Positions 14,566 through 46,083 of a stretch of DNA of 64,000 nt are shown here, piece after piece (positions within the stretch are counted from its first letter, which is position 1; every line of letters starts with the position of its first letter). The notes below the pieces were generated by a model, which saw only the letters and a program-made list of their open reading frames with translations, searched no databases and had not been told where the DNA came from. The stretch is from an uncultured bacterium (GTDB taxonomy: Bacteria > Fidelibacterota > JAANXI01), in NCBI GenBank assembly GCA_964413425.1, contig CAYPST010000003.1, positions 15,336 through 79,335 of the forward strand, read 5' to 3'. The position numbers were made by a program, and so were the translations under genes.

Positions 14566-14794
14566 GTTCGAGGGTGGGACGAATCCCATACCCTAAATGA
14601 AACACCGAAACACACTGAAACACACGGATAATGTGAAACTTGACAGGCACCTTTGTCCACTGCCCATCCCGACAAAGTATTCGGGATGACGAAGCGGGGC
14701 AGCCTATTGTCTTTATGCCCATTCAAAAACTTTATGGTTTCCACCTGTTTTTTAAACACTCTCAGAAAATGCAAGCAATGTGAGGAGCAAAATA

Positions 14795-18003: not shown

Positions 18004-19812
18004 ATGAAGGATTTTTCCGAGAAATATCAACTCCCGATTAAACTTCTGGTGACGCTGTTCTTCGCAGGATTATTGATCGCACCACTAATTATCCAGCGGT
18101 ATGCCGCCTCCGGCACTTTTTCTCCCGGGGAGGATTCCAAAGAATTCGCGCTGCAGCACTTCGGATTCTATCTGGAGGATGTCGCCCTGGCCAGTGGGCT
18201 GGATTTCACGCATCAATCCCCCAGGCTTGATCCGAAGCTGAATCATATCCTTCCGCAGATTGCTTCCATGGGAGCGTCGGTGTCGATTGTGGATTTCAAC
18301 CGGGACGGATGGAATGACATCTATGTTACCAATAGTCGGTATGGGACAAAAAATGCCCTGTACCGCAATGAAGGTGATGGCACCTTCCGGGATGTCGCGG
18401 AGACGGTTGGCGTCGCGAACGTGAATCAGCCGGGCACCGGAGTATCCATGGGAGCCGTATGGGGCGACTACGATAATGACGGGTATGAAGATCTCTTTTT
18501 GTACAAGTGGGGAAAGCCGGAATTGTTTCATAATAATGGCGTGACCGGTTTCACCAGAGTAACGGAGCAGAGTGAATTTCCCGAGTGGGTGAATTCTAAC
18601 ACGGCGATCTGGTTGGATTACAATTCGGATGGCTATCTGGATATCTTCCTGGGCGGATATTATCCTGCAAAATTCGATCTCTGGAATCTGTCCACTACCA
18701 GGATTATGCCGGAAAGTTTTGAGTATGCGCAGAACGGCGGCCGTAACTATTTGTTCGAGAACCAGGGAGACGGCACATTTCGGGATGTCAGTGACCAGGC
18801 AGGATTGACCAGCACCCGCTGGACACTGGCTGCCGGAGCTGCTGACTTTCAGCGGGACGGCTACCCGGGTCTGTTCCTTGCCAACGATTTTGGAGTGGAT
18901 GAATTCTATTCGAATGAAAAGGGGAAACGGTTTCGCGAGGTCGGGATTGAGATGAAAACCGGATTTACACCGAAAAGCGGGATGAACGTGGCGTTTGGAG
19001 ATATCGCCAATCAGGGATTGTTTTCGATTTATGTAACCAATATCACCGAGGAAGGGGTTCTGATGCAGGGTAATAACCTGTGGATGCCCCGACAGAGCCG
19101 CGATAGGATTACGTACACCAATCTTGCGCGACAGATGGGAGTGGAGTTGGGAGGATGGAGTTACGGGGCGCAATTCGGTGATCTGAACAACGACGGGGCA
19201 GTGGATTTATATGTGGCGAACGGTTTTATCTCCGCACGGAAGGGGACCAGTTACTGGTACGATTATTCCAAGGTAACGGGGGGCAATTCGGCGATCATTT
19301 CCGATGCCCGTAACTGGCCTGACATGCGCGGACGAAGCCAGTCCGGATATCAGCGCAACCGGATCTGGCTGAATGATGGTGCCGGGCGGTTTCAGGAAGT
19401 TGCGGGATATGTAGGCGGAAATGATATCTTCGACAGCAGGGCAGTTGCGCTTGTCGATCTCTGGAACCGGGGAGTACTGGATGTGGTGGTCGCCAATCAG
19501 AATGACCGGTTGCTGGTATACAAAAATGAGGTGCTTCCCGGGAATAACTGGATTGGTTTTCAGCTGGAAGGCACCCGAAGCAACCGGAGTGCCGTTGGCG
19601 CTGCTGTTACCCTGCACTGGGACGGAAAGACGCAATCGCAGATTGTATCCGGAGGTATCGGGTATTGCTCGCAGAACCAGCGCCGGGTTCAGTTTGGACT
19701 GGGGAGCAGCGAGAGTGTCGAAAAAGCTGTTATTCACTGGCCTTCCGGGATCCGACAACAAGTTGAACTTCCCGAGGTTCGAAAAATGCATACGGTGCGA
19801 GAACCGGAATGA
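18004..19812 (+). CDS. CRTAC1-family protein: FG-GAP/VCBS-like repeats plus C-terminal ASPIC/UnbV domain, N-terminal membrane anchor
   Basis: Repeated D.N.DG..D.. calcium-binding-loop motifs (FNRDGWNDIYV, YDNDGYEDLFL, YNSDGYLDIFL, LNNDGAVDLYVANGF). C-terminal UnbV_ASPIC-type sequence (GGIGYCSQNQRRVQFGLG...HWPSG). One N-terminal TM helix. Confidence 0.8.
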   Translation: MKDFSEKYQLPIKLLVTLFFAGLLIAPLIIQRYAASGTFSPGEDSKEFALQHFGFYLEDVALASGLDFTHQSPRLDPKLNHILPQIASMGASVSIVDFNRDGWNDIYVTNSRYGTKNALYRNEGDGTFRDVAETVGVANVNQPGTGVSMGAVWGDYDNDGYEDLFLYKWGKPELFHNNGVTGFTRVTEQSEFPEWVNSNTAIWLDYNSDGYLDIFLGGYYPAKFDLWNLSTTRIMPESFEYAQNGGRNYLFENQGDGTFRDVSDQAGLTSTRWTLAAGAADFQRDGYPGLFLANDFGVDEFYSNEKGKRFREVGIEMKTGFTPKSGMNVAFGDIANQGLFSIYVTNITEEGVLMQGNNLWMPRQSRDRITYTNLARQMGVELGGWSYGAQFGDLNNDGAVDLYVANGFISARKGTSYWYDYSKVTGGNSAIISDARNWPDMRGRSQSGYQRNRIWLNDGAGRFQEVAGYVGGNDIFDSRAVALVDLWNRGVLDVVVANQNDRLLVYKNEVLPGNNWIGFQLEGTRSNRSAVGAAVTLHWDGKTQSQIVSGGIGYCSQNQRRVQFGLGSSESVEKAVIHWPSGIRQQVELPEVRKMHTVREPE

Positions 19813-20651
19813 GTTCCACGGAAACGTCAGTATCTCAGACGAATTCGACCACCACGGAAGCGACATTTTTTTCCTGGTTGAAACGGCTGGATTTCAGGTA
19901 TGCCCCTCCCCTTTTTATCACTTTAATTCTGCTGGTTGGTCATTGGTCCTTCGGAATACTGGAAAGCCATAAAACTGTGGTTCTGGCCGTCGCTGCCAGT
20001 ATGCTGACCGACCTGGCACTCGCCAGGTTGATGTGGGGCAAATGGCGTAATCTTTCCAGTGCCTATATCTCCGGAATCAGTGTGAGCATCCTGATCAGGT
20101 CGCCGATGTATTGGCCGTATGTCTTGTGCGCGATGATCTCCATAGCCACCAAATACGTGCTGAGATATCGGGGGCGGCATCTCTGGAATCCATCCAATTT
20201 CGGGGTGTCCTGGATGCTGTTCACCGCTCCCTTCAGCGTGGCGGGTCTGAGCATCCAATGGGGAAATAATCTGTGGCCCATGCTGATTATCTGGCTCCTG
20301 GGATGTGTTATCGTGTGGCGAGCCCGCCGGTTTCATGTCACTTTCACCTATGTGGTCGGCTTTATCGCATTTTCCTTGCTTCGCAGTGTGATTACCGGCG
20401 CGTCGTTTTTAGCGGAAGTTGCACCACTCACCGGGCCGATGTACCAGCTGTTTGTCCTGTTTATGATTACTGATCCGGTCACCACGGTGAGTTCCCGAAA
20501 GGGTCGCATTCTGGTTGCATTCCTCATTGCACTGGTCGAGTTCGTACTGCGATTGAATGAATTCATCTACGCGCCATTTTATGCGCTCTTCCTGGTGGGG
20601 CCTGCGGCCATGATGATTGACCTGTGGCGGACAAAGTCTGCCGGAGCCTGA
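19809..20651 (+). CDS. polytopic integral membrane protein (about 8 TM), possible UnbU-like partner of the ASPIC/UnbV protein
   Basis: Hydrophobic profile. Start ATGA overlaps the stop of the CRTAC1 gene, implying translational coupling. UnbV/UnbU-type gene pairing is a recurrent neighbourhood, but I cannot confirm family membership from sequence alone. Confidence 0.45.
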   Translation: MSSTETSVSQTNSTTTEATFFSWLKRLDFRYAPPLFITLILLVGHWSFGILESHKTVVLAVAASMLTDLALARLMWGKWRNLSSAYISGISVSILIRSPMYWPYVLCAMISIATKYVLRYRGRHLWNPSNFGVSWMLFTAPFSVAGLSIQWGNNLWPMLIIWLLGCVIVWRARRFHVTFTYVVGFIAFSLLRSVITGASFLAEVAPLTGPMYQLFVLFMITDPVTTVSSRKGRILVAFLIALVEFVLRLNEFIYAPFYALFLVGPAAMMIDLWRTKSAGA

Positions 20652-20789: not shown

Positions 20790-21458
20790 ATGCCGGAGCC
20801 ACATCTTCGACCATACGAAGAATACCGGGAATATCCGGTGGAGACCATGCGTGATCGTGCCCGGGCGTTCTGCGAAGATCTCCGCAGGCGCCGGTCGGTC
20901 CGGGAGTTCTCGGATCGCCCGGTTCCGCCCGAGATTATCGAGGACTGTCTGCGTGCGGCGGTGAGTGCGCCCAGCGGAGCGAATATGCAGCCATGGCATT
21001 TTGTGGTTGTTCGAAATCCAGCAGTAAAACACGAGATTCGTCTTGCCGCGGAAGAGGAGGAGCGGAAGTTCTATGGGCAGCGCGCACCGGATGAGTGGCT
21101 GAATGCCCTCTCGCCTCTGGGTACGGATCCGGAGAAACCATTTCTGGATACGGCGCCATGCCTCATTGCCGTCTTTGCGGAATCGTATGGGATCAGTGCC
21201 GGTGGAGCACATGTGAAGCATTACTATGTGAAGGAATCAGTGGGGATTGCCACTGGAATGCTTATTACCGCCATACATCATGCGGGATTGGTGTGTTTGA
21301 CGCACACTCCGAGTCCCATGGGATTTTTAAATACGATTCTGAACCGTCCGGAAAATGAAAAACCGTTTCTTCTATTGGTGGTGGGCTATCCGGCTGATGA
21401 TGCTGAGGTCCCTGGTATCGTGAAGAAGCCATTTGACGAAATGGTAACCTTTCAATAA
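20790..21458 (+). CDS. nitroreductase-superfamily flavoprotein, iodotyrosine-deiodinase-like subgroup
   Basis: [39 protein letters not shown] is the FMN-binding nitroreductase/IYD-type N-terminal signature. 222 aa. Confidence 0.65.
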
Positions 21459-21724
21459 GTGGTATGAGCTGGGAGGAAATTCGGGAATGAGACCTCCTTG
21501 ATGGTTCTGAGCCGGAAAGGTTTTGGCATACAAGAGCACATCAAAGATTCATCTGTTCAGCATTGAAATGTTGCTATGCAGATAAGATTACAATAATTTG
21601 TATAATACAAGACATTGGTCTGGTTACAACCGGCATGCTGTTCTACTCTGTATAAAACCGGCCATTTATTGCGCCGGATTTCATAGAATGTAGACTATAA
21701 ATTGTTATGGAGAAGGAGAGCATT

Positions 21725-23275
21725 ATGTGCTGTCATTGTACCGGGCCATCCCACGAAATGAACAGACGAGAGTTTCTCAAAGTCTCAACAGCAAGTGTTG
21801 CCGCGGCTGGTATCGGAATGTCTTTGGGGCCGGGGTTGCTGGCCTCGATGAAAGATAATGGCTGGGATCCGAAGAAACCGTATCTGCAAATCGGTAAACC
21901 GCTTTCAGTCCAGCCGGTGTTAATGTACAGTCTGTCTGAACGCAGACCCCAAACCTCCTGGCGGCCCTGGGGCGGATTGCACACCGAACGGGATGTCGAC
22001 GGGGAAGTCGAGCGGATCACTGCAGAGCTCCGCCAGATGGAAAAGGATGCTGAGTTCCCATTGAAATGTGCGCCGGTGGTAAAGATCCGGAGTGAAGAAG
22101 AGGCGGTCAGCCTGCAGAAACAGAGTCAGAGTGATGTGTTTATCATCTATGCCGCCTCCGGTGGAACAAATGTGTTTGAAGCCCTCGTCTCCGAAGAGCG
22201 GAATAAGCTGGTATTTCTGCGACATCGCTCCGGGCCTGTGTATCTCTGGTATGAGATTGTGCATAATCGATTCTTGCGAAAAGGGGGAGATGGTTACGAT
22301 CTGGAGGAATTCCGGAATCCCGGTGGCGTTGATATTCATGATATCGTGGTGGATGAGCCCGGTGAATTACTCTGGAGGGTGCGCGCTCTGTATGGTTTAA
22401 AGAACACGATGGGTGCTCGTATCGTCACACTGGGCGGACCGGGAGGGTGGTGTGCGCCGTATGCTCCGGACAAGGCTCGGGAGCGGTTCGGCCTGGACTT
22501 CGTTGAGGTCAGTTATGATGAAATGGAGCGGCGCATTCAACAGGCAAAACATAACCGGGAAATGATATCCCTGGCCGAGGACTGGACGAATCGATATCTC
22601 TCGTTACCTCATATTTCTCTGGAAACAGACCGGGAATTTGTCCGGAACGCCTTTGTGTTATATGCCTTATTTAAGGAGTTGATGGAAGAAAATAACACTT
22701 ACGCCTTTACCATCCGGCAGTGTATGAGCACCATCATACCCATGGCGGAAACCACCGCCTGTCTGCCGCTGATGTTGTTAAACGATGAGGGCTATCTGGC
22801 CTTTTGCGAATCCGATTTTAATGTGATCCCCTCCGGAATTTTACTGCATTATATTTCCGGGAAACCGGTATTTCTGAATGATCCCACCTATCCACACGGT
22901 AATGTGGTCACCTGTGCTCACTGTACCGGCCCCAGCCGGATGAACGGGGACGATTACGAAACCACCCGGGTGCTCACGCACTTCGAATCCGATTACGGAG
23001 CGGCACCCAAAGTGGAGATGCCCCTGGGCAGAGAGGTGACCATCATCGATCCGGATTCCTATCAGCGGGAGTGGGTGGGTTTTAAAGGAACCATTGCCGC
23101 CAATCCGTTTCTGGATATCTGTCGGACGCAGTGGGATATCCGGTTTGAGGGTGATGAGGAAAAGTTAAATCAGGTGACCAAAGGTTTTCACTGGATGATT
23201 GCGGAAGGTGATTATCTCCGTGAGACGGAGTATGCCGCGCGCAAAGCGGGAATCGAATGGCTTGATCTTGCCTGA
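21725..23275 (+). CDS. twin-arginine-exported protein of unknown function with duplicated C-x-C-T-G-P-S motifs
   Basis: Tat motif NRREFLKVSTASVAAAGIG. Strong RBS GGAGAAGGAGAG before ATG 21725 (the ORF also opens at 21707). CCHCTGPS at residues 2-9 and CAHCTGPSRMNGDD near residue 395. Weak local resemblance of the C-terminal third to the FucI/AraA isomerase superfamily (GILLHYISG vs GIIHLINSG); that resemblance is not a call. Confidence 0.5.
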   Translation: MCCHCTGPSHEMNRREFLKVSTASVAAAGIGMSLGPGLLASMKDNGWDPKKPYLQIGKPLSVQPVLMYSLSERRPQTSWRPWGGLHTERDVDGEVERITAELRQMEKDAEFPLKCAPVVKIRSEEEAVSLQKQSQSDVFIIYAASGGTNVFEALVSEERNKLVFLRHRSGPVYLWYEIVHNRFLRKGGDGYDLEEFRNPGGVDIHDIVVDEPGELLWRVRALYGLKNTMGARIVTLGGPGGWCAPYAPDKARERFGLDFVEVSYDEMERRIQQAKHNREMISLAEDWTNRYLSLPHISLETDREFVRNAFVLYALFKELMEENNTYAFTIRQCMSTIIPMAETTACLPLMLLNDEGYLAFCESDFNVIPSGILLHYISGKPVFLNDPTYPHGNVVTCAHCTGPSRMNGDDYETTRVLTHFESDYGAAPKVEMPLGREVTIIDPDSYQREWVGFKGTIAANPFLDICRTQWDIRFEGDEEKLNQVTKGFHWMIAEGDYLRETEYAARKAGIEWLDLA

Positions 23276-23730: not shown

Positions 23731-25029
23731 ATGAAGTTGCAACAGTACACCACTCGTCGCGAATTTTTAAAGGATACGGTACGAGCTGCATTCGGTCTGT
23801 CTCTTGTCCCCTCACTTCTCACCAAACGGGCCGGTGCCAGTCAACCATCCCTGGCAGCGAATGACCGGATTACTCTGGGCTTTATCGGGACCGGAGGACA
23901 GGGGACACACAATATGCGCGCATTCTTAAATAACCCGGAGGCGCAGGTGGTGGCGGTATGCGATGTGGATCGCAGCCATCGGGACCGCGCCAAACGGATT
24001 GTGGATGACCACTATGGCTCTGATGACTGTGATTCCTACAACGATTTTCGGGAGTTGAATGCCCGGAATGATATCGATGGTGTGGTGGTTGGTACCCCCG
24101 ACCACTGGCATACCATCCCGGCATTGGATGCCGCCAGACAGGGGAAGGATATCTATCTCGAAAAACCTCTGACGCTCACCATTGATGAAGGAATTAAATT
24201 ACGGGAGGTCATTCATCGCTATGAGCGTATTTTGCAGACTGGCAGCCAGCAGCGGTCCGACCGGGATTTTCGCTTTGCGTGCGAGTTAGTGCGCAACGGA
24301 TATATCGGCGAGGTTCAGAAAGTGGAGGTGGTGATTCCGGGGAACAATCGGACGACCGGTCCCACCTGGGAACCGATGCCAGTGCCGGCCGGATTTGATT
24401 ACGACTTCTGGCTGGGCCCCGCTCCCTGGAAACCCTATACCGAGCAGCGTTGCCACTATCAATTCCGGTTTATCCTGGATTACTCCGGTGGTCAGGTTAC
24501 CAACTGGGGCGCTCACTTTCTGGATATTGCACAATGGGGGTTAGGCATGGATGACTCCGGACCTGTGGAGGTGTTTGGTGATGGGGAGTTTCCCGAAACA
24601 GGATTGTTCACCACAGCCACCCAGGTGGATTTTACGTGCATTTATGAGAACGGAGTGGAGATGACCTGTAAAACAGGTGGTACCGGTACCAAATTTATTG
24701 GCACGGAAGGGTCGGTTTTTGTGAGCAGAAGCAGGCTGGAGACCGAACCGGCTTCCTTGTTGGAAACCCGCATCAAGCCGGATGAGTTGCACTTATACGA
24801 AAGTAATGACCATCACCAGAACTTTCTGGACTCGATGCGTTCCCGCAGGAATCCGATTGCTGATGTCGAAATCGGTCATCGGTCTGCCACTATCTGTCAC
24901 CTCGGAAATATTGCCATGCTCACAAAGCGGCGCCACAGATGGGATCCGGCCGCGGAGAAGTTTATCGGCGATGATGCGGCGAATCGGATGACCGGACGAC
25001 CCTCCCGTGGTTCCTGGAGGATTGATTGA
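23731..25029 (+). CDS. Tat-exported Gfo/Idh/MocA-family oxidoreductase (GH109-like / glycoside-3-dehydrogenase-like), paralog 1
   Basis: Tat motif TRREFLKD. Rossmann GFIGTGGQGTHN, VVAVCDVD, PDHWH, LEKPL. 432 aa. Confidence 0.8.
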   Translation: MKLQQYTTRREFLKDTVRAAFGLSLVPSLLTKRAGASQPSLAANDRITLGFIGTGGQGTHNMRAFLNNPEAQVVAVCDVDRSHRDRAKRIVDDHYGSDDCDSYNDFRELNARNDIDGVVVGTPDHWHTIPALDAARQGKDIYLEKPLTLTIDEGIKLREVIHRYERILQTGSQQRSDRDFRFACELVRNGYIGEVQKVEVVIPGNNRTTGPTWEPMPVPAGFDYDFWLGPAPWKPYTEQRCHYQFRFILDYSGGQVTNWGAHFLDIAQWGLGMDDSGPVEVFGDGEFPETGLFTTATQVDFTCIYENGVEMTCKTGGTGTKFIGTEGSVFVSRSRLETEPASLLETRIKPDELHLYESNDHHQNFLDSMRSRRNPIADVEIGHRSATICHLGNIAMLTKRRHRWDPAAEKFIGDDAANRMTGRPSRGSWRID

Positions 25030-25402
25030 GGAGCGCAAAACGGCATTCATAGGGAGTGTAAGGTATATCCTGAAGAGAGAAATATAATTAATCGTTTGGA
25101 ATTCGTTGCAGAACCTGATAATATAGCAGAAACCGGTCACGAATCCATTATAACGAAGGAGCAGGAAGTTAACAATCGGGCAGCCGACGGGGATTTCCGA
25201 AGCAACCGGATGCCTCAGTCGTCTGGAATTATGGAAGTATCTGCCGGTTGGTGCGGGCAGGCGCGGCTTTGGCTCCAGAGGGGCCGGATGTTTCTAGAAA
25301 GCGGACATTCAAAATCCCCTCCGCTTCAGCCTGCCCGGCTGCCGACGGGCGGAGCGGAACATTCAACTGAGTGAAGTTCATAGTCATATATAGAAATATG
25401 GA

Positions 25403-26737
25403 GTGAGTGGAATGTCGAATGAAACGCAGATATCTCGCCGCCAGTTTCTTCGAACCGCCGTTGGTCTGACCGTCGGGGCCGCAGTTGCTCCGGTGGTCGT
25501 ACCCTCCTCGCTGGTTGGCAAGTCGGCCCAGGTTCCGCCCAGCGATCAGGTGGTGATGGGCTGCATCGGCGTGGGCTGGCAGGGCACCAGTAACATGGAG
25601 AGTTTCCTCAGAGAAGCAGATGTGCGGATCGTGGCGGTGTGCGATGTGGACGAGCATCATCTCCGGAACGCCAGGCAGATCGTCGATGAGCATTACGGCA
25701 ACACTGATTGTGCTGTCTACCATGATTTCCGGGACGTACTCGCGCGAGCGGACATTGATGCCGTGTCGCTGGGCTTGCCGGACCACTGGCATGCGGTCCC
25801 GGCGATTCAGGCGGCGGAGCAGGGCAAAGACATCTATGGGGAAAAGCCGGTCTCTCATACGCTCAGGGAGGGCCGGGCCATAGTGGAGGCGGTGGAACGA
25901 TACGGCCGGATCTGGCAGACCGGCAGCTGGCAGCGCTCGGAGTCGCAGTTTCGGGTTGCCGCCGAACTGGTGCGGAACGGCTACATTGGGAAAGTACACA
26001 CCGTGGAGGTCGGGTTACCGGCCGGCCACACCGATTTTGCCGGTACCAAAGGACAGGATGACATCCAGCCGCCACCCCCGGAACTGGAGTATGATTTCTG
26101 GCTGGGGCCGGCCCCCTATTCCCCGTACATTAAATCCCGGGTGCATAAGAATTGGCGCTGGTACTATGATTTCGGCGGCGGGCAATTGATGGATTGGGTC
26201 GGCCACCACGTGGATATTGCGCATTGGGGGCTGGGCACAGAATACACCGGGCCGGTGGAAATCAAGGGCACCGGTGAATTCCCCGGGGACGGGGTCTGGG
26301 ACACCGCCACCCGGTATCGGGTGGACACGGTGTATCCGAACGGCGTGCAATTGATTATGGCGGGCGGCCATGAGGAGGTCTGTTTCGGCAGAATGGGCAC
26401 CAAATGGATTGGCGAGGACGGCTGGGTCTGGGTGGACCGGAGCGGTATCGATGCGGAGCCCAAGCGTCTCCTGCAGGAAACCATCAGAGCGGACGCAATT
26501 CAGCTCTATCGCTCCCCCGGACACTGGCGGAATTTCATCGACTGTGTGAAATCCCGGCAGCAGACCATCACCCCGTGCGAAGTGGCGCATCGATCGGCTT
26601 CGCCTGGTCATCTGGGATTGATATCTATGTTGTTAGGACGCAAAATCCGGTTCAATCCGGAGACGGAAGAAATCCCGGACGATCCGACTGCCGCCAGGAT
26701 GCTGGGTAAATCCATGCGGAGCCCGTGGGCGGTATGA
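25403..26737 (+). CDS. Tat-exported Gfo/Idh/MocA-family oxidoreductase, paralog 2
   Basis: Tat motif SRRQFLRTAVG. GCIGVGWQGTSN, IVAVCDVD, PDHWH, GEKPV. 444 aa. Confidence 0.8.
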   Translation: MSGMSNETQISRRQFLRTAVGLTVGAAVAPVVVPSSLVGKSAQVPPSDQVVMGCIGVGWQGTSNMESFLREADVRIVAVCDVDEHHLRNARQIVDEHYGNTDCAVYHDFRDVLARADIDAVSLGLPDHWHAVPAIQAAEQGKDIYGEKPVSHTLREGRAIVEAVERYGRIWQTGSWQRSESQFRVAAELVRNGYIGKVHTVEVGLPAGHTDFAGTKGQDDIQPPPPELEYDFWLGPAPYSPYIKSRVHKNWRWYYDFGGGQLMDWVGHHVDIAHWGLGTEYTGPVEIKGTGEFPGDGVWDTATRYRVDTVYPNGVQLIMAGGHEEVCFGRMGTKWIGEDGWVWVDRSGIDAEPKRLLQETIRADAIQLYRSPGHWRNFIDCVKSRQQTITPCEVAHRSASPGHLGLISMLLGRKIRFNPETEEIPDDPTAARMLGKSMRSPWAV

Positions 26738-26963
26738 GCGGTGTGCCGGGGAATTGCCGAAAACAGAGTTTGTCACAGAATTGTCGATGGGGTATGATTA
26801 GAATACAGATAAGGACAATTCAGTGATATACTCCGTTGGGGAGCAGTTGCTATCCATATCCGATTCAAAAAAGCGAACGTTGCCTCAGATAATATAAGCT
26901 GTCAATGAGCAATAAAATGAGTAAGAGAGAAGTGTCAGATTTGGCATCAGGAAAGTGTAAGAT

Positions 26964-28259
26964 ATGAGCCATCTTCGAATGAGTCGACGGGAATTTTTAT
27001 CCGGCACGCTCACCCTCCTCGGTGGCACCCTTGCCGTGCCTGCTCTAATACCACATTCTGTATTCGCAGCAGCTCCCGGCGATCAGATCACCATGGGATT
27101 TATTGGGACGGGAAAACAGGGCACCTATTTGCTCCGGGCGTTTCTTAACGAAACGGGAACCCGGGTACTCGCTGTCTGCGACGCGGATCGACTGAAACTT
27201 GAACGCGCGCAGCGGGTGACGAATGAATACTACGCCCGGGAACAGACCACTGGCAGCTATCAAGGCTGTGATATGTATCCGGATTTTCGGGAGCTCCTGG
27301 GACGGGAGGACATCGATACGGTGGTGATCGCCACGCCGGATCACTGGCATGCTGTCGCGGTCGACGAATCGGCCTGCGCAGGCAAAGATATCTACTGCGA
27401 AAAACCGCTTTCCCAGACCATCGAAGAGGGGAAATCCATGGTCCGGGCAGTACGTCGGTACGGGCGTATATTTCAGACCGGCAGCATGCAGCGTTCCTAT
27501 CAGCAGTTCCGGTTTGCCTGTGAATTAGTGCGGAACGGCTATATCGGAGATATCCGGCATGTCACGGTCGACGTGGGCGGCCCGCCCGAACTGTGTACAT
27601 TGCCTCCTGAACCGGTTCCGGAGTATCTGGATTGGGACATGTGGCTTGGCCCGGCACTCCGCAGACCCTATAATTCGGATCTGTCTCCGCACATCAGCAA
27701 CGATATCTTTCCGCACTGGCGCAGCTATCGTGCGTTCGGTGGTGGCGGGATGACCGACTGGGGCGCGCATCATTTCGATATCGCCCAATGGGCCCTGGGG
27801 ATGGATCACAGCGGACCTGCAGAGATCCATCCGCCGGATGAAAGGGGCTATGATGTGCTGACATACAGATATGCCAATGGCATAACCATGAGCCGCAACA
27901 CCTTCGAAGAAGGACATGGCGTCCTCTTTGAGGGCAGTGATGGGAAAATTGTAGTGAACCGCAGCTATATCCAAACCTGGCCGGAAAAATTGGCAGAAGC
28001 GAAGATAAAGCCGAATGAAGTCCACCTGTACAGAAGCAATAATCATTACGCCGATTTTCTGCAAGCTGTCCGGGGTCGAAGTAAACCTATTTGCGATATC
28101 GAGATCGGCTACCGGTCCGTATCTGTCTGCCACCTCGGGAATATCGCGTATGAACTGAAGCGGCCGTTGCAGTGGGATCCTGCACAGGAAAACTTCGTGA
28201 ACGATCCGGATGCCCATCGGCTGCTCAGCCGGGCCTATCGTAATCCGTGGAAGTTATAA
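26964..28259 (+). CDS. Tat-exported Gfo/Idh/MocA-family oxidoreductase, paralog 3
   Basis: Tat motif SRREFLSGT. GFIGTGKQGT, VLAVCDAD, PDHWH, CEKPL. 431 aa. Confidence 0.8.
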   Translation: MSHLRMSRREFLSGTLTLLGGTLAVPALIPHSVFAAAPGDQITMGFIGTGKQGTYLLRAFLNETGTRVLAVCDADRLKLERAQRVTNEYYAREQTTGSYQGCDMYPDFRELLGREDIDTVVIATPDHWHAVAVDESACAGKDIYCEKPLSQTIEEGKSMVRAVRRYGRIFQTGSMQRSYQQFRFACELVRNGYIGDIRHVTVDVGGPPELCTLPPEPVPEYLDWDMWLGPALRRPYNSDLSPHISNDIFPHWRSYRAFGGGGMTDWGAHHFDIAQWALGMDHSGPAEIHPPDERGYDVLTYRYANGITMSRNTFEEGHGVLFEGSDGKIVVNRSYIQTWPEKLAEAKIKPNEVHLYRSNNHYADFLQAVRGRSKPICDIEIGYRSVSVCHLGNIAYELKRPLQWDPAQENFVNDPDAHRLLSRAYRNPWKL

Positions 28260-28289
28260 CATAATTGAGAGAAGAGAAGAAGAATCATC

Positions 28290-29645
28290 ATGACCAGACG
28301 TGAGTTTCTCCGGCGATCCGCCGGAATATTCATTGCGGCAGTGAGTGCACCGGCAGTAGTGCCGTCAACGATCTTTGGAAAGGCCGGGCAGATCCCCCCA
28401 AGTGAACGGATTGTCATGGGGTGTATCGGTGTTGGGGGCCAGGGCACCTATAACACCAGAGCGTTTCTCAATATCCCGGATGTCCAGGTGGTGGCGGTTT
28501 GTGATGTCGAGCGGGAAAGTGATCTCTATTACGGAGACACCGTTGCAGGCAGAGAGCCGGCCAGACGACTTGTGAATGCGTTTTATTCCAGGAATCGGGG
28601 AGCAGTCAATTACCAGGGGTGCGAGGTGTATACTGATTTTCGGGAGCTGCTGGCCCGGGATGACATTGATGCAGTTACCGTGTGCACTCCTGATCACTGG
28701 CACGGGTTGATTTCAGTCGCGGCGGCGGAAGCCGGTAAGGATATCTACTGCGAGAAACCTCTGACAAACACCATTGCCGAAGGTCGGGCGGTTGTGGATG
28801 CAGCCCGGAAATACGGCCGGATTCTGCAGACCGGCAGCCATGAACGCTCCAATGATAGCGTGCGGTATGCCTGCGAACTGGTTCGGAACGGATACATGGG
28901 CGAACTGCAGCGAATCCGGGTAAATATGCCCAACAGCGATCCCCACCACGACCTGATTCGCCAATCGGACCAGCCGCAGCCGGAAATGCCAATCCCGGAC
29001 GGATTCGATTATAATATGTGGCTGGGGCATACCCCCTGGAAACCTTACACGGAAAAGCGCTGCCATTTCTGGTGGCGGTTCATCCTGGATTACGGCGGTG
29101 GAGAAATGACGGACAGAGGTGCACATATTATCGATCTGGCACAGCTGGGCAACAACACCGACCATACCGGTCCGGTCCGCTTGCGAGCGAGGGGCAGTGC
29201 CCCGGATACCGGGCTTTATGATACGTTCCTCTCGTATGAGTTTGAATGTCAGTATGACAATGGTATTACCCTCCTTGGCAGCAGTCAGCAGCCGAGAGGG
29301 CTGAAATTCGAAGGGACCGACGGCTGGATATTTATCCACATCCACGGTGGACGACTGGAAGCCGAGCCAGCCTCCCTGCTGACGACACAGATCGGTCCCG
29401 GAGAAGTCCACCTGGGGCGCAGTCCCGGACATCATGAAAATTTTATCAATTCGGTAAAAATTAGGAAGCAGCCCGTGGCTCCGGCCGAAGTCGGGCATCA
29501 TACCGCAACCATCTGTCATCTTTTGAATATAGCCATGTTAACCGGTACTGAAGTGCACTGGGATCCCGAAAACGAGCAGATAACAAATAGTCCGGAAGCC
29601 AATAAAATGCTCTCCCGACCCATGCGGAGTCCATGGCATTTGTGA
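28290..29645 (+). CDS. Tat-exported Gfo/Idh/MocA-family oxidoreductase, paralog 4
   Basis: Tat motif MTRREFLRRSAG. GCIGVGGQGT, VVAVCDVE, PDHWH, CEKPL. 451 aa. Confidence 0.8.
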   Translation: MTRREFLRRSAGIFIAAVSAPAVVPSTIFGKAGQIPPSERIVMGCIGVGGQGTYNTRAFLNIPDVQVVAVCDVERESDLYYGDTVAGREPARRLVNAFYSRNRGAVNYQGCEVYTDFRELLARDDIDAVTVCTPDHWHGLISVAAAEAGKDIYCEKPLTNTIAEGRAVVDAARKYGRILQTGSHERSNDSVRYACELVRNGYMGELQRIRVNMPNSDPHHDLIRQSDQPQPEMPIPDGFDYNMWLGHTPWKPYTEKRCHFWWRFILDYGGGEMTDRGAHIIDLAQLGNNTDHTGPVRLRARGSAPDTGLYDTFLSYEFECQYDNGITLLGSSQQPRGLKFEGTDGWIFIHIHGGRLEAEPASLLTTQIGPGEVHLGRSPGHHENFINSVKIRKQPVAPAEVGHHTATICHLLNIAMLTGTEVHWDPENEQITNSPEANKMLSRPMRSPWHL

Positions 29646-29717
29646 GGTATTCGGATAAATGCACCACAAGGTAATCTGTAATTTCGTAAACACAACAAGC
29701 AAGAAAGGATAGGGGTT

Positions 29718-31112
29718 ATGACTGATAAGAATCAATCTCCTTCCAAAGGAAAGCAAGACATGTCCCGTCGGCAGTTTTTAGGGGCATCGGCACTGGCCGC
29801 AGCCGGATTAACGGTTGCGCCTCGACACATACTCGGGGGCGCAGGATACCAGGCTCCCAGTGATACACTGAACATCGCCTGCATCGGTGTGGGTGGCATG
29901 GGAAGAAACAATACCCGGGAACTGGCGGAATTGGGCGAAAATATCTATGCCCTCTGTGATGTGGATTTCGATTATGCCAGCGGGGTATTCGAGCAGTATC
30001 CCCGGGCGAAGAAGTACACGGATTTCCGGAAGATGTTAGAGAATGAACCGGAAATTGATGCCGTGATGGTGGCGACACCGGATAATACCCATGCTGCTAT
30101 CGCCATTACCGCCATGAAAAGGGGGAAGCACGCATTTGTTCAGAAACCACTGACTCGCACAATTTACGAGGCGCGTCGTTTGGCTGAGGTGGCGAAGGAA
30201 GAAGGCGTGGCCACCCAGATGGGGAATCAGGGGCATGGTATGGAAGGTACCTACCTGATACTGGAATGGATTCGCCAGGGAGCCATAGGGGACGTCACCA
30301 AAGTAGATACCTGGACCAACCGTCCCAGAGGATACTGGCCCCAGGGAGCTGACGTCCGTCGGCCGGCAGAAATTCCGGCGGTCCCCTCCACGCTGTCCTG
30401 GGATCTCTGGATCGGGCCGTCTCCGTATAGACCCTATCATCCCGCGTATCATCCCTTTGCATGGCGCGGATGGTGGGATTTCGGTTCCGGAGCACTGGGC
30501 GATATGGGCGCGCATATCATGGATCAGCCATACTGGGCGTTAGAACTCGGTATGCCTGAAACGGTCTATGCCAGTAACACACCGTATAACGATCAGTCCT
30601 TCCCGCTGGGATCCGTAGTTCACTATCAATTCCCGGCAAGAGGGAATAAGCCGCCGGTGAAGTTCACCTGGTACGATGGCGGATTACTGCCCCCGCGTCC
30701 CGACGATCTGGAACAGGGTCGTCAAATGGGCGCCAGCGGCGGCGGCATGATCTTCTATGGGACCGAAGGGAAACTGATGGCCAGCGTCTACGGAAACAAT
30801 CCCCGGCTGATTCCGGAATCGTTCATGCGCGAAGTGGGCCCGCCGAAGAAAACCCTGGAACGCTCACCTGGTATCCATGAGGAATGGGTGAACGAAGCCA
30901 AGGGGGGACCCAAAGCCAAGTCCAACTTCGAATATGCCGCTGCATTGACGGAAACGATGCTGCTGGGTAATGTGGCGATTCAATTCAGCGACACCAATAA
31001 ACGACTGGAATGGGATGCCGAAAATATGCAGGTCGCCAATCATCCGGAAGCAAACGAGTGGTTAGCGCAGGTCCACGATTTTCGTCCTGGCTGGGATGAG
31101 TTGATCGGATAA
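29718..31112 (+). CDS. Tat-exported Gfo/Idh/MocA-family oxidoreductase, paralog 5 (most GH109-like)
   Basis: Tat motif SRRQFLGASALAAAG. ACIGVGGMGRNN, YALCDVD, PDNTHA, VQKPLT. 464 aa. Confidence 0.8.
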   Translation: MTDKNQSPSKGKQDMSRRQFLGASALAAAGLTVAPRHILGGAGYQAPSDTLNIACIGVGGMGRNNTRELAELGENIYALCDVDFDYASGVFEQYPRAKKYTDFRKMLENEPEIDAVMVATPDNTHAAIAITAMKRGKHAFVQKPLTRTIYEARRLAEVAKEEGVATQMGNQGHGMEGTYLILEWIRQGAIGDVTKVDTWTNRPRGYWPQGADVRRPAEIPAVPSTLSWDLWIGPSPYRPYHPAYHPFAWRGWWDFGSGALGDMGAHIMDQPYWALELGMPETVYASNTPYNDQSFPLGSVVHYQFPARGNKPPVKFTWYDGGLLPPRPDDLEQGRQMGASGGGMIFYGTEGKLMASVYGNNPRLIPESFMREVGPPKKTLERSPGIHEEWVNEAKGGPKAKSNFEYAAALTETMLLGNVAIQFSDTNKRLEWDAENMQVANHPEANEWLAQVHDFRPGWDELIG

Positions 31113-31131
31113 GTGATTCTGTCAGAGACAC

Positions 31132-31170
31132 GGGCAGGTGGGTTCCATCTTTGCCTGCCCGTTTTCTGCT
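31132..31170 (+). terminator. intrinsic terminator (GGGCAGG-N15-CCTGCCC followed by GTTTTCTGCT)
   Basis: A 7-bp GC stem plus a U-rich tail lies 20 nt after the stop of the fifth oxidoreductase gene. Confidence 0.5.
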
Positions 31171-31226
31171 AACCAAGTACATTCGAAATCGCTGGACTAC
31201 GCGATAGCGAAAAGGAGAAGATTTCC

Positions 31227-32123
31227 ATGTTGAAAAACGGTATCGGAGTACCCGTGCTGATTCTCCTCTTCCTTACAGCGGTGATGATCGCCAGCTGTAG
31301 GAAGAAGCAGGAAGTTAGTTCGGTACCCTATAATCCGCAAACCGATGTATACAAAGGATGGCGGCTTGGCTGCCAGGCCTACTCATTCAACCGGTTTACC
31401 TTCTATGAAGCGGTGGATAAAACCGCGTCAGTGGGATTGGGATGGATTGAAGCATATCCCGGGCAGACACTGAGTCAGGAGCATCCGGACGTGCAATTCG
31501 GACCGGAGATGTCACCGGACATCCGGGCGGAAGTCAAACAGAAGCTGGCTGATGCCGGAATACAGCTGGTGAACTATGGAGTTACCCAGCTGCCCAATGA
31601 CGAGGCCGAATGCCGGACAGTGTTCGATTTCGCCGAAGATATGGGTATCGAGACCATCGTCTCCGAGCCCCCGGAAGAAGCCTTCGATCTGATCGATCGA
31701 TTGGCTCAGGAATACCAGATCAATGTCGCGATTCACAATCATCCGAGGCCGTCCCATTACTGGAATCCGGAAACAGTTCTGCGGGTGGTGGAAGGCCGGA
31801 GCAAGTATCTTGGTGCCTGCGCCGATACCGGCCACTGGATGCGGTCGGGTATCAATCCGCTGGAAGCCCTGCAGATGCTGGAAGGACGTATCATCTCTCT
31901 GCACTTCAAAGATCTGAACGAATTCGGAGTCCGGGAGGCCCATGACGTGCCCTGGGGCACCGGACAAGCAAATGTTGAAGCACTGCTCAAAGAGCTGGAT
32001 CGCCAGAACTTCCGGGGCGTCTTTTCTATTGAGTACGAACATAACTGGGAAAATTCGGTCCCGGACATCCAAAAATGTGTGGAGTATTTTAATGAAGTGG
32101 CGGGTGAATTAAGTGAGGTATAA
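31227..32123 (+). CDS. sugar phosphate isomerase/epimerase (xylose-isomerase-like TIM barrel) with lipoprotein-type signal peptide
   Basis: Signal peptide ending MIASC. Metal-binding TIM-barrel motifs typical of the AP endonuclease 2 / xylose-isomerase-like fold (IETIVSEP, AIHNHP, CADTGHW, LHFKD, IEYEHNWE). Confidence 0.75.
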   Translation: MLKNGIGVPVLILLFLTAVMIASCRKKQEVSSVPYNPQTDVYKGWRLGCQAYSFNRFTFYEAVDKTASVGLGWIEAYPGQTLSQEHPDVQFGPEMSPDIRAEVKQKLADAGIQLVNYGVTQLPNDEAECRTVFDFAEDMGIETIVSEPPEEAFDLIDRLAQEYQINVAIHNHPRPSHYWNPETVLRVVEGRSKYLGACADTGHWMRSGINPLEALQMLEGRIISLHFKDLNEFGVREAHDVPWGTGQANVEALLKELDRQNFRGVFSIEYEHNWENSVPDIQKCVEYFNEVAGELSEV

Positions 32124-32692: not shown

Positions 32693-33389
32693 TTACTCAG
32701 TATTTGTGGAGATCAAGAGTTCCTGGAGACGCTCTGACCGAATGACCCCCTCTGGCTCCCCCTTAGTAAGGGGGAGAACGAGGAAAATGGGGTCAGGCCC
32801 GAAGGGCCCCCTATGGGGCAGCATTGAGGTAGGTGTTCATCTCCTGAGCCAAGTTAATAGTCATATTCATTAAAACTGAATTATCGAGGTAAATAACAGG
32901 AGTAAGTCATAATAGAACTAGTAGTTAGATTAATTAAAAAGGATTCTCTTAAGATAACTTCAGTACAGGATCGAGAAACTCCCGGGGAGTGTTCCTATGA
33001 AGCGTTAAGGAGTGAGTCTAGCCAGAGTGCTCAGCAGGCCGGATGTATCCACAAAGCCCTGATGCGCTGATTTTGGCCCCCAGGGGCTAGATATTTCTAG
33101 CAATGAGTCCCTCTCCCCCCTTCCGCGCCGGAGGAGCAGTACTGAGTTAAGCTGATAGTAAAATATGCATAATTAATATGATTAATCAGGAAAAAACATT
33201 GCTTTCATTAACAAACTACGTTATACTTATAGCAACATATGTATTTGACATCGCTTAGAACCTGACCCATAGATAAGAACTGTTTACTTTTGTTGTTCAT
33301 GTCGGTTTACTTTAAGCTTGGTTAGCAGAGGATAGGAAGCAGTATTTTGAGGCACTGTAATAAGGGGTTAAGAGAAAAGATATGGCGAT

Positions 33390-33425
33390 GCACACGTTTG
33401 CGAATACGTTTTCGCAAACGTGTGC
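33390..33425. promoter_or_regulatory. 36-bp near-perfect palindrome GCACACGTTTGCGAATAC|GTTTTCGCAAACGTGTGC (candidate operator or stable hairpin)
   Basis: 35 of 36 positions are self-complementary. It lies about 170 nt upstream of the TonB-dependent receptor start at 33598. Confidence 0.45.
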
Positions 33426-33597
33426 AAATGGCATCATCGTTAATATAATTTGTTTAAGGAATCGCAGATCGTTTCTGGGCAAGGCAGCATAATTAAAAGG
33501 CGTTTCGAAGGCTCTTCACTAGGTGGCTGATATGTCTGAATTTTTATTAAAGAATTGAATCACCATTAATATAATATAAACAGAAAGGAGAATTACC

Positions 33598-45018: not shown

Positions 45019-46083
45019 GTGAGTATGCCAGCTAAGAAGATTACGATTAAAGATCTGGCACGTATTCTGGGCCTTCACCATAGTACAGTATCCCGGGCCT
45101 TGCATGATCATCCGGATATCAGCCAGGAAACTAAAAATCTTGTTTTCTCTCTTGCTGAGGAACTCGATTACCAACCTGATGCCATTGCCCAGACATTTCG
45201 CAGCAGAAAAAGTAAGACGCTGGGGGTATTGGTGCCATCGGTCAATGACTTTTTTGCGGCGGTTATTCGGGGTATTGAGGATATCGCCTATTATAATGGA
45301 TATACAATATTGGTGTGCCAATCCAATGAGAGCTATGAACGCGAGGTGATTAATATCCGCAGTCTGATATCGAATCAGGTAGCCGGCGTGCTGGTATCAA
45401 TATCGGAGCATACTACGAGCAGTGAACATTTCCAGATCTTCAAAAATCGTGAGATCCCCTTGGTTCTCTTTGATCGTGTATTTAAAGGACAGGATTTTAA
45501 TACTGTGGTTGTTGATGATTTCAATGGCGCCTATAAAATAGTGAATCATATTATTCGCCGAGGATATAGAAGGGTTGCTCATTTTGCCGGTCCCAGAAAA
45601 GTGTCTGTAAGTAAAGATAGACTTGAAGGATATTTACAAGCTCTAAGTGATAATAATATTCCGATTAATCCAAAATGGATTATTTATGGAGGATTTTCAC
45701 CACAAGATGGCCAACGAGCATTTCGGGAGATGCAGACCTGGCAAGCCTATCCTGAGGCTATTTTTGCGGTAAATGATCCTGTAGCGATAGGGGTATATAC
45801 CCAACTGCGGAAGGCCGGAATAAAAATTCCAAGCGATATCGCATTGGCTGGTTTTGGGAACATAAGCGAGTCGGGAATAACCACACCTCCCATTACCACG
45901 GTGAATCAGAATCCATATGAAATTGGGAAGCTGGCTGCACTGTTCATCTTTGATCAGATCAAGAAGCCGGACCAGATTTCGAAGCCGCGTGAAGAAATTT
46001 TGCAGACGGAACTGATTATCAGACCTTCGACGGCCCCTAAAAAATTGAGTGATAGCCGGTCGTTTCATAGACACGCTGAGTAG
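45019..46083 (+). CDS. LacI/GalR-family transcriptional regulator
   Basis: N-terminal HTH ITIKDLARILGLHHSTVSRAL followed by a periplasmic-binding-protein-like sugar-binding domain. GTG 45019 or ATG 45025. 354 aa. Confidence 0.85.
   Translation: MSMPAKKITIKDLARILGLHHSTVSRALHDHPDISQETKNLVFSLAEELDYQPDAIAQTFRSRKSKTLGVLVPSVNDFFAAVIRGIEDIAYYNGYTILVCQSNESYEREVINIRSLISNQVAGVLVSISEHTTSSEHFQIFKNREIPLVLFDRVFKGQDFNTVVVDDFNGAYKIVNHIIRRGYRRVAHFAGPRKVSVSKDRLEGYLQALSDNNIPINPKWIIYGGFSPQDGQRAFREMQTWQAYPEAIFAVNDPVAIGVYTQLRKAGIKIPSDIALAGFGNISESGITTPPITTVNQNPYEIGKLAALFIFDQIKKPDQISKPREEILQTELIIRPSTAPKKLSDSRSFHRHAE

Follow-up and report, generated by a model that had tools for sequence, protein, structure and literature searches.

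Organization of the gene cluster

A stretch of DNA of 64 kb, in the following called the window, was analyzed. It harbors on its forward strand five consecutive genes encoding Gfo/Idh/MocA oxidoreductases with Tat signals and, directly downstream, a gene encoding a TIM-barrel protein. P1 (23731-25029, 432 aa), P2 (25403-26737, 444 aa, GTG start), P3 (26964-28259, 431 aa), and P4 (28290-29645, 451 aa) belong to a sister family of AL3. P5 (29718-31112, 464 aa) is a full-length homologue of the glycoside 3-dehydrogenase AL3/BT2158, and P6 (31227-32123, 298 aa) is a lipoprotein with a xylose-isomerase-like TIM barrel of the 3P6L family. The positions of these genes are exactly those of the original prediction. 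The spacers are uneven, with 455 bp upstream of P1 followed by 373, 226, 30, 72, and 114 bp; therefore, a single operon is not certain.

The spacer between P5 and P6 contains a GC-rich hairpin with a short T run (31130-31171, forward strand), a candidate intrinsic terminator or attenuator. The hairpin (31130-31162) has a 13 bp stem with 7 G-C pairs, is followed by TTTTCTGCT, and is the best terminator-like site of the region. The minimal free energy of the spacer is -38.7 kcal/mol, and it folds better than shuffled sequences (z -2.8). A terminator closing the whole unit had been proposed at 31132-31170. A hairpin is indeed present there, but it is located between P5 and P6 and thus separates the TIM barrel from the dehydrogenase series. 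This position, together with the long spacers splitting P1, P2, and P3, leaves co-expression unproven.

P1 to P4 share 40-47% identity with each other, whereas identity of P5 to P1-P4 is only 26-34%. Hence, the five genes described as tandem paralogs are consecutive and homologous, but they are not equal and group as 4 + 1.

All five oxidoreductases matched the Pfam families GFO_IDH_MocA and GFO_IDH_MocA_C2. The predicted GxGxxG Rossmann motif and PD(H/N)(W/T)H motif were found in each of them, as was an (E/Q)KP motif. Twin-arginine signals, also predicted, are present in all five as [ST]RRxFL at residues 2-16; among 43 family members, RR-x-FL shows little or no variation. When Tat-signal HMMs were applied, only P2 and P5 came near the thresholds, and both exceeded the TIGR01409 cut-off. 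With their GxGxxG motif and fold, P1-P5 may hold a tightly bound, non-exchanging NAD like AL3.

P5 resembles the glycoside 3-dehydrogenase AL3/BT2158

P5 matched the NCBIfam model NF058561 (BT_2158_fam, "glycoside 3-dehydrogenase") with 529.6 bits over model positions 1-436 of 487. The equivalog cut-off of 750 bits was not reached and the last ~50 model positions are without a match; judged by its sequence, P5 is a homologue of AL3/BT2158 and not an equivalog by the NCBI standard. The proteins are 46% identical over 412 aa, and the PDB entries 8tdf and 8tdh were found with E-values from 1e-108 to 1e-111 (3e-111 for 8tdf). The active-site residues of AL3 were taken from a preprint (10.1101/2024.03.25.586180); a single numbering offset of +29 puts all six residues named there on the right amino acid types in 8tdf. 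P5 keeps all six of them, namely Gln161, Arg192, Trp195, Asp248, His252, and Tyr349, and furthermore the EKP lysine of AL3, located in the (E/Q)KP motif. P5 is predicted to be the first enzyme of the pathway described below.

P1 to P4 are divergent, putative sister dehydrogenases

P1-P4 matched NF058561 with 139-154 bits and over the N-terminal ~260 positions only. From the catalytic and active-site set of AL3 they keep only the lysine, His252, and Asp248, the latter being Asp in P2-P4 and Asn in P1. Comparison of the active-site residues revealed that Arg192, Trp195, and Tyr349 are absent from all four; consequently, their substrates could be non-glycosides. The position of Gln161 is occupied by Gln in P1, Trp in P2, Met in P3, and His in P4. 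Trp again occupies this position in 12 of 22 P2-type homologues from other phyla, and Met does so in all nine P3-type homologues (57-68% identity); an ortholog of P3 with 60% identity is part of an array in Planctomycetes. The family of P1-P4 comprises at least 8000 homologues. AL3 was the top structural match of a P1 model, followed by DgpA1. P1-P4 combine the same fold and catalytic Lys, His, and Asp/Asn with four different sugar pockets. Most likely, their redox chemistry is unchanged but directed at sugars of other configurations or at other linkages.

Enzymes of families GH109 and GH4 catalyze transient C3 oxidation and E1cB elimination, with a single enzyme responsible for all steps. P1-P4, possibly also P5, might be self-contained NAD-dependent glycosidases of this type, with oxidation, elimination, addition of water, and reduction in one active site and the TIM barrel being unrelated. 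GH109 members are likewise Tat-exported Gfo/Idh/MocA proteins of similar length, and their export was cited in the original prediction; however, the closest relatives in sequence and structure are not GH109 enzymes, the proteins are not GH109 members, and GH109 structures rank well behind AL3. We consider such one-enzyme cleavage quite improbable here.

P6 belongs to a TIM-barrel family linked to DUF1080

The signal peptide of P6 ends in the lipobox I-A-S-C. P6 matched Pfam AP_endonuc_2 (E 4e-22), as anticipated, and gave near full-length alignments with PDB 3p6l (E 2e-82) and 4KW2 (E 4e-47), two entries from structural genomics that are labelled "sugar phosphate isomerase/epimerase", belong to the same family, and have no described function. 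A profile of 27 P6 homologues found 3p6l with E 4e-99, but 8tcs and 8tcd/8tcr (AL1/BT1) only with E 0.03. In view of this marginal value, membership of P6 in the AL1/BT2156 lyase family was rejected; AP_endonuc_2 is shared, but the subfamily is different. By sequence, P6 is a member of the functionally uncharacterized 3P6L family.

Residues H170-N-H172, D200, H203, W204, H226, E269, and E271 are invariant in P6. AL1 has a metal site consisting of His178/His180, Asp211, and His237, and a catalytic Glu. Compared by distance along the chain, the H170-D200-H226 spacings in P6 (30 and 26) resemble those in AL1 (33 and 26), which makes these residues a candidate metal site. P6 is predicted to be a metal-dependent 3-keto-glycoside lyase and/or glycal hydratase.

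Among 5532 P6 homologues, the closest ones (62-74% identity) are mostly fusions of ~485 aa consisting of AP_endonuc_2 and PF06439 (3keto-disac_hyd). Orthologs were surveyed in 80 species-representative genomes. In 52 of the 80 species they carry, as a fusion, the DUF1080 domain known as "3-keto-disaccharide hydrolase"; a P5-type gene is located directly upstream in 45 genomes and within 10 kb in 54, and P1-4-type genes are found nearby in 24. Fusions and gene order suggest a function for the 3P6L/4KW2 family. Signal peptides, lipoboxes, or Tat signals were recognizable by a crude test in at least 58 of the 80 orthologs. A cytoplasmic sugar-phosphate epimerase whose orthologs are devoid of signal peptides would have contradicted the original prediction; this check did not refute it.

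Alternatively, the array could encode periplasmic dehydrogenases of free sugars or cyclitols, similar to the Zymomonas glucose-fructose oxidoreductase or inositol dehydrogenases, with P6 as an IolE/IolI-like inosose or keto-sugar isomerase/dehydratase and no glycosidic cleavage. IolE and IolI were found with the P6 profile (E 1e-3), P1-P4 are without three of the sugar-binding residues of AL3, and weak NCBIfam matches were obtained with IolG (P1-P5, 71-82 bits) and IolE (P6, 29 bits). These scores are 4-10 fold below the cut-offs of 355 (TIGR04380) and 290 (TIGR04379), and membership in myo-inositol catabolism was rejected. Placement of the paralogs in an inositol or sugar-nucleotide clade, which would likewise have spoken against the original prediction, was not found; their scores are 4-5 fold below the NCBIfam cut-offs. 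Furthermore, AL3 is closer in both sequence and fold than glucose-fructose oxidoreductase and the inositol dehydrogenases, known inositol catabolism is cytoplasmic, and the fusion of P6 orthologs to a 3-keto-disaccharide hydrolase domain points to 3-keto-glycosides. An array acting on free sugars or cyclitols thus appears unlikely.

The gene cassette is conserved

A cassette of P2/P3/P4-type genes followed by a P5-type gene and a TIM-barrel gene recurs in locus L004, in a KSB1 MAG (L019), and in loci L042/L044. P1-type genes adjoin DUF1080 or TIM-barrel genes in three of four neighborhoods examined. The array is not the local fivefold expansion originally assumed; its paralogs diverged anciently and form a conserved cassette. 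The upstream Tat protein and the IYD-like nitroreductase, suggested as possible members of the same unit, and the adjacent fucoside locus are not conserved neighbors. The longest open reading frame of the upstream gene starts at 21707; the deposited 516-aa product fits the start at 21725 given earlier. A tblastn search of the window with two DUF1080 domains found no such domain (best E 0.18), and none of the 40 ORFs scanned against Pfam matched PF06439.

Proposed pathway and known systems

The cluster probably encodes a non-Koshland system that cleaves glycosides stepwise in the periplasm, similar to those characterized in Alistipes and B. thetaiotaomicron (AL1-4, BT2156-2159). Because many P6 orthologs are fused to DUF1080 or preceded by a P5-type gene, we read it as a variant of the pathway that proceeds through oxidation, elimination, hydration, and reduction. 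The core of the original prediction, i.e. periplasmic C3 oxidation by an NAD-bound enzyme followed by elimination by a xylose-isomerase-fold protein, is supported by the homology of P5 and its six residues, the AL3 match of the P1 model, the fusions and gene order of P6 orthologs, and the results on clade placement and export signals.

What we observed are homologies, conserved residues, export signals, fused domains, and a conserved gene order; from these, we infer activities and substrates as follows. P5 would fold around NAD in the cytoplasm and be exported by Tat. In the periplasm, it would act on an oligosaccharide or glycoside and oxidize its non-reducing-end sugar at the 3-OH, giving a 3-keto-glycoside. 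Membrane-anchored P6, using a divalent metal and a carboxylate base, would remove H-2 and eliminate the aglycone, yielding a 2-hydroxy-3-keto-glycal. The window is without a DUF1080 domain, and P6 may also hydrate this glycal. Finally, the NADH form of the dehydrogenase would reduce the 3-keto-sugar and recycle the trapped cofactor, the net reaction being hydrolysis.

The system had been called uncharacterized; its kind is already known from the stepwise glycoside-cleaving operons AL1-AL4 of Alistipes and BT2156-BT2160 of B. thetaiotaomicron (Liou 2020; Liu 2021, PMC8121099; Nasseri 2024, 10.1101/2024.03.25.586180). There, periplasmic C3 oxidation, elimination, and hydration are followed by a reduction that recycles trapped NAD (Liu 2021, PMC8121099; Nasseri 2024, 10.1101/2024.03.25.586180), a mechanism which explains both Tat export and cofactor recycling. 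The present cluster shares the periplasmic location and pathway logic, here predicted from genes, and the combination of a Tat-exported dehydrogenase with an AL3-type active site (P5) and a secreted xylose-isomerase-like TIM barrel. It differs in that P5 is below the equivalog cut-off, P6 is of the 3P6L type, and four additional Tat-exported dehydrogenases with altered pockets (P1-P4) are present. A cytosolic BT2159-type partner is missing from the cluster (22 bits for the 14780 gene), regulators of the SusR or DUF6377 type are absent from its surroundings, and there is no DUF1080 protein, which in the known system (AL2/BT2157, PF06439) supplies the alpha-lyase and the efficient hydratase.

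The Gram-positive glucuronide-cleaving cluster P2B11 likewise combines several oxidoreductases and TIM-barrel "isomerases" without a DUF1080 protein (Nasseri 2024, 10.1101/2024.03.25.586180); hence, the pathway works with varied architectures. Its Oxido1 (8tdi) is distant (E 1.5e-7 to P1, 1.7e-8 to P5), and its Gram-positive host has no periplasm. The same chemistry, carried out by Gfo/Idh/MocA enzymes or a flavin oxidase together with xylose-isomerase-fold lyases/hydratases, is known from C-/O-glycoside deglycosylation, i.e. the O-glycoside beta-eliminase and 2-hydroxy-3-keto-glucal hydratase of Agrobacterium and the DgpA/DgpBC and CarA/CarBC systems (PMC10628242), and from the levoglucosan pathway (PMC7676230). 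In contrast to the present cluster, these systems operate mainly in the cytoplasm and with O2 or exchangeable cofactors; P6 has no significant E-value to the TIM-barrel proteins of the deglycosylation systems.

In genomes of Planctomycetota, KSB1, Bacteroidota, and Verrucomicrobia-like bacteria, the large numbers of proteins annotated as "Gfo/Idh/MocA oxidoreductases" with Tat signals and as secreted "sugar phosphate isomerases" have long been puzzling. The P5-type anchor gene and the TIM-DUF1080 fusion tie such proteins to oxidative glycoside cleavage and lead to testable predictions of function for the P1-P4 family, the 3P6L structural-genomics family, and multi-paralog cassettes. We tentatively put forward a broader proposal, which is possible rather than probable: the P1-P4 family would consist of Tat-exported NAD-bound glycoside 3-dehydrogenases whose Gln, Trp, Met, and His subtypes each serve sugar configurations that AL3/BT2158 cannot handle (e.g. 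galacto-, fuco-), the cassette of KSB1, Planctomycetota, and relatives would serve as a general-purpose battery for exo-deglycosylation, and the 3P6L-type TIM barrel would be a second independent 3-keto-glycoside lyase family able to work without DUF1080. If the paralogs do cover different sugars, glycans in sediments and oceans would be turned over by such cassettes along a route that is invisible to CAZy.

Related loci with cytochrome genes

In related loci, Gfo/Idh/MocA genes adjoin genes for a multihaem cytochrome c and a cytochrome b (L005-L007) or for ThuA-HEAT proteins. Cytochromes have been raised as possible re-oxidants (Nasseri preprint, 10.1101/2024.03.25.586180). Both would fit dehydrogenases that pass electrons from periplasmic sugar oxidation to the respiratory chain, resulting in net oxidation for energy and not in redox-neutral hydrolysis. 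However, genes for a cytochrome, ThuA, or a quinone reductase are lacking around the array in the window, and the Gfo/Idh/MocA genes linked to cytochromes have C3/C domains and belong to neither the P1-4 nor the P5 type, which makes respiratory oxidation by P1-P5 very unlikely. Locus L007 also encodes a homologue of the 8ro4 hydratase.

Organization of the gene array

Six consecutive genes had been predicted, and ORF calling confirmed them with exact coordinates, all on the + strand. The five oxidoreductase genes P1 (23731-25029), P2 (25403-26737, GTG start), P3 (26964-28259), P4 (28290-29645) and P5 (29718-31112) each encode the Pfam domains GFO_IDH_MocA, which covers the Rossmann domain, and GFO_IDH_MocA_C2. 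They are followed by P6 (31227-32123), encoding an AP_endonuc_2 domain (xylose-isomerase-like TIM barrel). A spacer of 455 bp lies upstream of P1, the following ones comprise 373, 226, 30, 72, and 114 bp. The strongest terminator-like site of the region is a hairpin at 31130-31162, and folding of the P5-P6 spacer exceeded that of shuffled sequences (z -2.8). The hairpin expected to close the series is thus real, but it is located between P5 and P6. In view of this position and the uneven spacers, a single operon of P1-P6 is uncertain, though possible.

A loosely conserved repeat of about 130 nt is present in three intergenic copies (about 25250-25390, 32730-32866, and 33050-33164), one of which makes up much of the long P1-P2 spacer. 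All three copies end in CTGAGnnAAGTTnATAGTCATAT (3 matches versus 0 expected), and in at least two of them TTTCTAG follows a small GC hairpin. An Rfam scan of the window, including this repeat, revealed no family at gathering score.

P5 resembles a known glycoside 3-dehydrogenase

P1-P5 all carry the twin-arginine motif [ST]RRxFL within the first 16 residues, together with GxGxxG, PD(H/N)(W/T)H, and (E/Q)KP; comparison of 43 homologues revealed that RR-x-FL is invariant or nearly so. P1-P4 share 40-47% mutual identity over their full length, whereas P5 is only 26-34% identical to them. P5 matched the NCBIfam model NF058561 "BT_2158_fam glycoside 3-dehydrogenase" with 529.6 bits over model positions 1-436 of 487, which is below the equivalog cut-off of 750 bits. 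Furthermore, P5 matched the Alistipes glucoside 3-dehydrogenase AL3 (structures 8tdf and 8tdh) with E 1e-108 to 1e-111 and 46% identity over 412 residues. The pocket residues of AL3 were named by its authors as Gln161, Arg192, Trp195, Asp248, His252, and Tyr349 (preprint 10.1101/2024.03.25.586180); shifting the numbering by a single offset of +29 brings all six onto the correct residue types in 8tdf. P5 retains all of them as well as the lysine of (E/Q)KP, and the majority of 60 P5-type homologues encoded in other genomes keep the same set.

P1-P4 matched NF058561 and the AL3 structures over the N-terminal 230-260 residues only (139-154 bits, E about 1e-29). When P1 was modelled with AlphaFold (pLDDT 83, pTM 0.82), AL3 was clearly its nearest match in structure, with Foldseek TM values of 0.75/0.72 and all other entries at ≤0.61. 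The original prediction had invoked GH109, and self-contained GH109-like glycosidases would be one explanation for exported proteins of this superfamily. Membership of P1-P5 in GH109 was ruled out by both sequence and fold ranking, and this explanation is less well supported. Free-sugar or cyclitol dehydrogenases are likewise less well supported. Placement of the paralogs in a biosynthetic clade would have spoken against the original prediction, and this test did not refute it: the scores of P1-P5 against inositol and sugar-nucleotide dehydrogenases remained far below the cut-offs.

P1-P4 represent distinct subtypes

P1-P4 retain the lysine, His252, and Asp248 (Asn in P1) and lack Arg192, Trp195, and Tyr349. 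At AL3 position 161 they carry Gln (P1), Trp (P2), Met (P3), and His (P4). Met was found at this position in all nine P3-type homologues, which belong to other phyla and are 57-68% identical, Trp in 12 of 22 P2-type homologues, and Gln together with Asn in 7 of 13 P1-type homologues. A Planctomycetes array contains orthologs of P1 (59% identity) and P3 (60%). The differences at position 161 are thus more than local noise, and P1-P4 are subtypes that diverged anciently and are conserved separately; the proposed fivefold tandem expansion, at least as a recent event, is not borne out.

The family of P1-P4 is large: a cut-off of E < 1e-20 yields at least 8000 homologues, and its members are named in the source databases only as "Gfo/Idh/MocA family oxidoreductase" or "predicted dehydrogenase". 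The named homologues of P1-P4 belong to candidate division KSB1 and Planctomycetes; for the window proteins as a whole, the closest named ones fall within KSB1 and Planctomycetota. The window also encodes a PorV/PorQ-type protein of type IX secretion, and its putative source is a KSB1-like bacterium of the FCB group.

P6 is a TIM-barrel protein of a different subfamily with an export signal

P6 begins with a signal peptide whose last part is the lipobox I-A-S-C; its orthologs likewise bear a signal peptide, a lipobox or a Tat signal. A cytoplasmic epimerase lacking such signals in its orthologs would have counted against the original prediction, and this second test did not refute it either. 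The nearest structures, 3p6l (E 2e-82) and 4kw2 (E 4e-47), are structural-genomics entries without a described function. A profile of 27 P6 homologues matched the known lyases AL1/BT1 (8tcs, 8tcd/8tcr) with an E-value of 0.03 only; therefore, by sequence P6 is assigned to a different subfamily of the superfamily and Pfam family that it shares with the known lyase. Residues H170-N-H172, D200, H203, W204, H226, and E269/E271 are invariant in P6-type proteins, and the spacing of these motifs suggests a resemblance to the metal-binding and catalytic residues of AL1.

Among 5532 homologues of P6, most of the closest ones (62-74% identity) are fusions of about 485 aa, in which the TIM barrel is joined to PF06439, the DUF1080 "3-keto-disaccharide hydrolase" domain. 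The presence of PF06439 in one such homologue, P0125, was confirmed by a separate domain scan (E 4e-42).

Gene neighbourhoods in related genomes

The neighbourhoods of P6-type genes were surveyed in 80 species-representative genomes; all counts are lower bounds, because ORFs were called crudely and many loci are cut off by the edge of the contig. The P6-type gene is fused to DUF1080 in 52 species. A P5-type gene is located directly upstream on the same strand in 45 of the 80 cases and within 10 kb in 54. Genes of the P1-4 type are present in 24 of these loci, 13 of which contain two or more. The same arrangement as in the window, in which a P5-type gene precedes an unfused TIM barrel and DUF1080 is missing from the surroundings, is shared by seven or more species (L011, L014, L028, L049, L064, L083, L087). 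Two independent lines, DUF1080 fusions and the P5-type neighbourhood, tie P6 to the pathway.

Locus L004 encodes P0126, which is 72% identical to P6. Its gene order is five Gfo/Idh/MocA-C2 genes, a ThuA-HEAT gene, a gene for a 470-aa Tat-signal Gfo/Idh/MocA protein occupying the slot of P5-type genes elsewhere, and the P6-type TIM barrel. The first C2 gene is truncated at the border of the locus, and the remaining four have P4, P2, P3, and P4 as their respective best matches. The KSB1 MAG locus L019 contains P3-, P2-, and P4-type genes, and its TIM-DUF1080 fusion gene is immediately preceded by a P5-type gene. Additionally, of four neighbourhoods of P1-type genes, three (L001, L092, L093) have a DUF1080 or TIM-barrel gene next to the P1-type gene, whereas L091 does not.

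[quoted passage not shown] Its homology to this hydratase is further evidence that related arrays may process 3-keto sugars. A 332-aa TIM barrel occupies the matching array place in L001 (12927-13925), the likeness to the L007 protein being in size and N-terminus.

The array as a probable variant of a known system

Oxidation by the Tat-exported Bacteroides thetaiotaomicron protein BT2158 with tightly bound cofactor was proposed by Liu et al. (PMC8121099). AL3/BT2158 was described to oxidise C3 with a non-exchanging NAD and to be re-oxidised by the 3-keto-glucose product; the TIM barrel AL1/BT2156, which has His, Asp, His and catalytic Glu residues, is a Co2+-dependent 3-keto-beta-glucoside 1,2-lyase, the lipoprotein AL2/BT2157 with its DUF1080 domain acts both as 3-keto-alpha-glucoside lyase and as the efficient 2-hydroxy-3-keto-glucal hydratase, and AL4/BT2159, a cytosolic protein, is not required in vitro (Nasseri et al., 10.1101/2024.03.25.586180). 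These authors also predicted other operons of varied architecture, some lacking DUF1080 (10.1101/2024.03.25.586180). The kind of system, originally called uncharacterised, was described between 2020 and 2024, and the array in the window is probably a variant of it. P5 would correspond to the AL3-type dehydrogenase. In contrast to the system of Alistipes and B. thetaiotaomicron, P6 belongs to another subfamily than AL1/BT1, and the window is devoid of DUF1080, of which no intact or decayed copy was found either in the 1474-bp AT-rich spacer following P6 or elsewhere in the window. The small ORFs of this spacer are unremarkable. A cytoplasmic Gfo/Idh/MocA gene at 14780 was rejected as BT2159-type partner (22 bits versus a cut-off of 650).

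The core of the original prediction, periplasmic oxidation and elimination, is supported by homology, residue conservation, export signals, fusions, and gene order, from which we also infer activities and substrates. The best-supported reading is a periplasmic system of oxidation, elimination, hydration, and reduction. P5 would act as AL3-type dehydrogenase, P6 as a metal-dependent lyase that might also hydrate slowly, and P1-P4 as dehydrogenases of the same chemistry with other specificities. For the P1-P4 family, the 3P6L family containing P6, and conserved cassettes of uncultured phyla, this reading predicts functions that can be tested.

Respiratory coupling of the dehydrogenases is less well supported. 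A Gfo/Idh/MocA gene with multihaem cytochrome c and cytochrome b is located beside the arrays in L005-L007 (e.g., L007 14013-18095), and ThuA-HEAT fusion proteins accompany those in L001, L004, and L093; in these related loci they could serve as electron outlet for periplasmic NAD-bound dehydrogenases. The window contains no multihaem cytochrome c, cytochrome b, or ThuA-HEAT genes.

Genes adjacent to the array

The Tat-signal protein T0 (21707 or 21725-23275, + strand) and the IYD-like nitroreductase (20790-21458) had been suggested as parts of the unit, which the neighbourhoods do not bear out: T0 is present in 1 of 80 P6 loci, three of its homologues lie in three unrelated neighbourhoods, and the nitroreductase was found in 1 of 90 loci. 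T0 has no Pfam domain and about 4600 homologues (1883 clusters at 50% identity). Its AlphaFold model (pLDDT 82) shows the L-arabinose/L-fucose isomerase fold (TM about 0.65, 12-15% identity). The known AraA and FucI enzymes are cytoplasmic; export of proteins with this fold is thus unexpected. A Cys-rich MCCxC just ahead of the twin-arginine motif (21725-21760), present in about 18 of 24 homologues, echoes the internal invariant segment CAHCTGPS of the same protein.

An FG-GAP/ASPIC (UnbV) gene (18004-19812) overlaps by 4 nt the gene of a 280-aa NQR2/RnfD-like membrane protein (19809-20651); the arrays of L004 and L005 likewise have FG-GAP/ASPIC genes in their vicinity.

The large fucoside locus noted beside the array is real and lies beyond the 1474-bp spacer that follows P6, but its adjacency is not conserved: GH29 genes occur near P6-type genes in 2 of 90 loci, GH95 and FucI genes in none of the 90. 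According to domain scans the locus (33598-62252) encodes eight GH29 fucosidases, one GH95 protein, FucI, a FucP-type transporter, an FGGY-family sugar kinase, a TonB-dependent receptor with a CarboxypepD_reg domain, LacI and DeoR regulators, a 712-aa unknown protein, and a PorV/PorQ-family (type IX secretion) protein. About 170 bp upstream of the receptor gene (33598), a palindrome of 19+19 nt with 95% complementarity (TGCACACGTTTGCGAATAC / GTTTTCGCAAACGTGTGCA) is located at 33389-33426; as a candidate operator, it might serve the LacI-family regulator encoded at 45019-46083.
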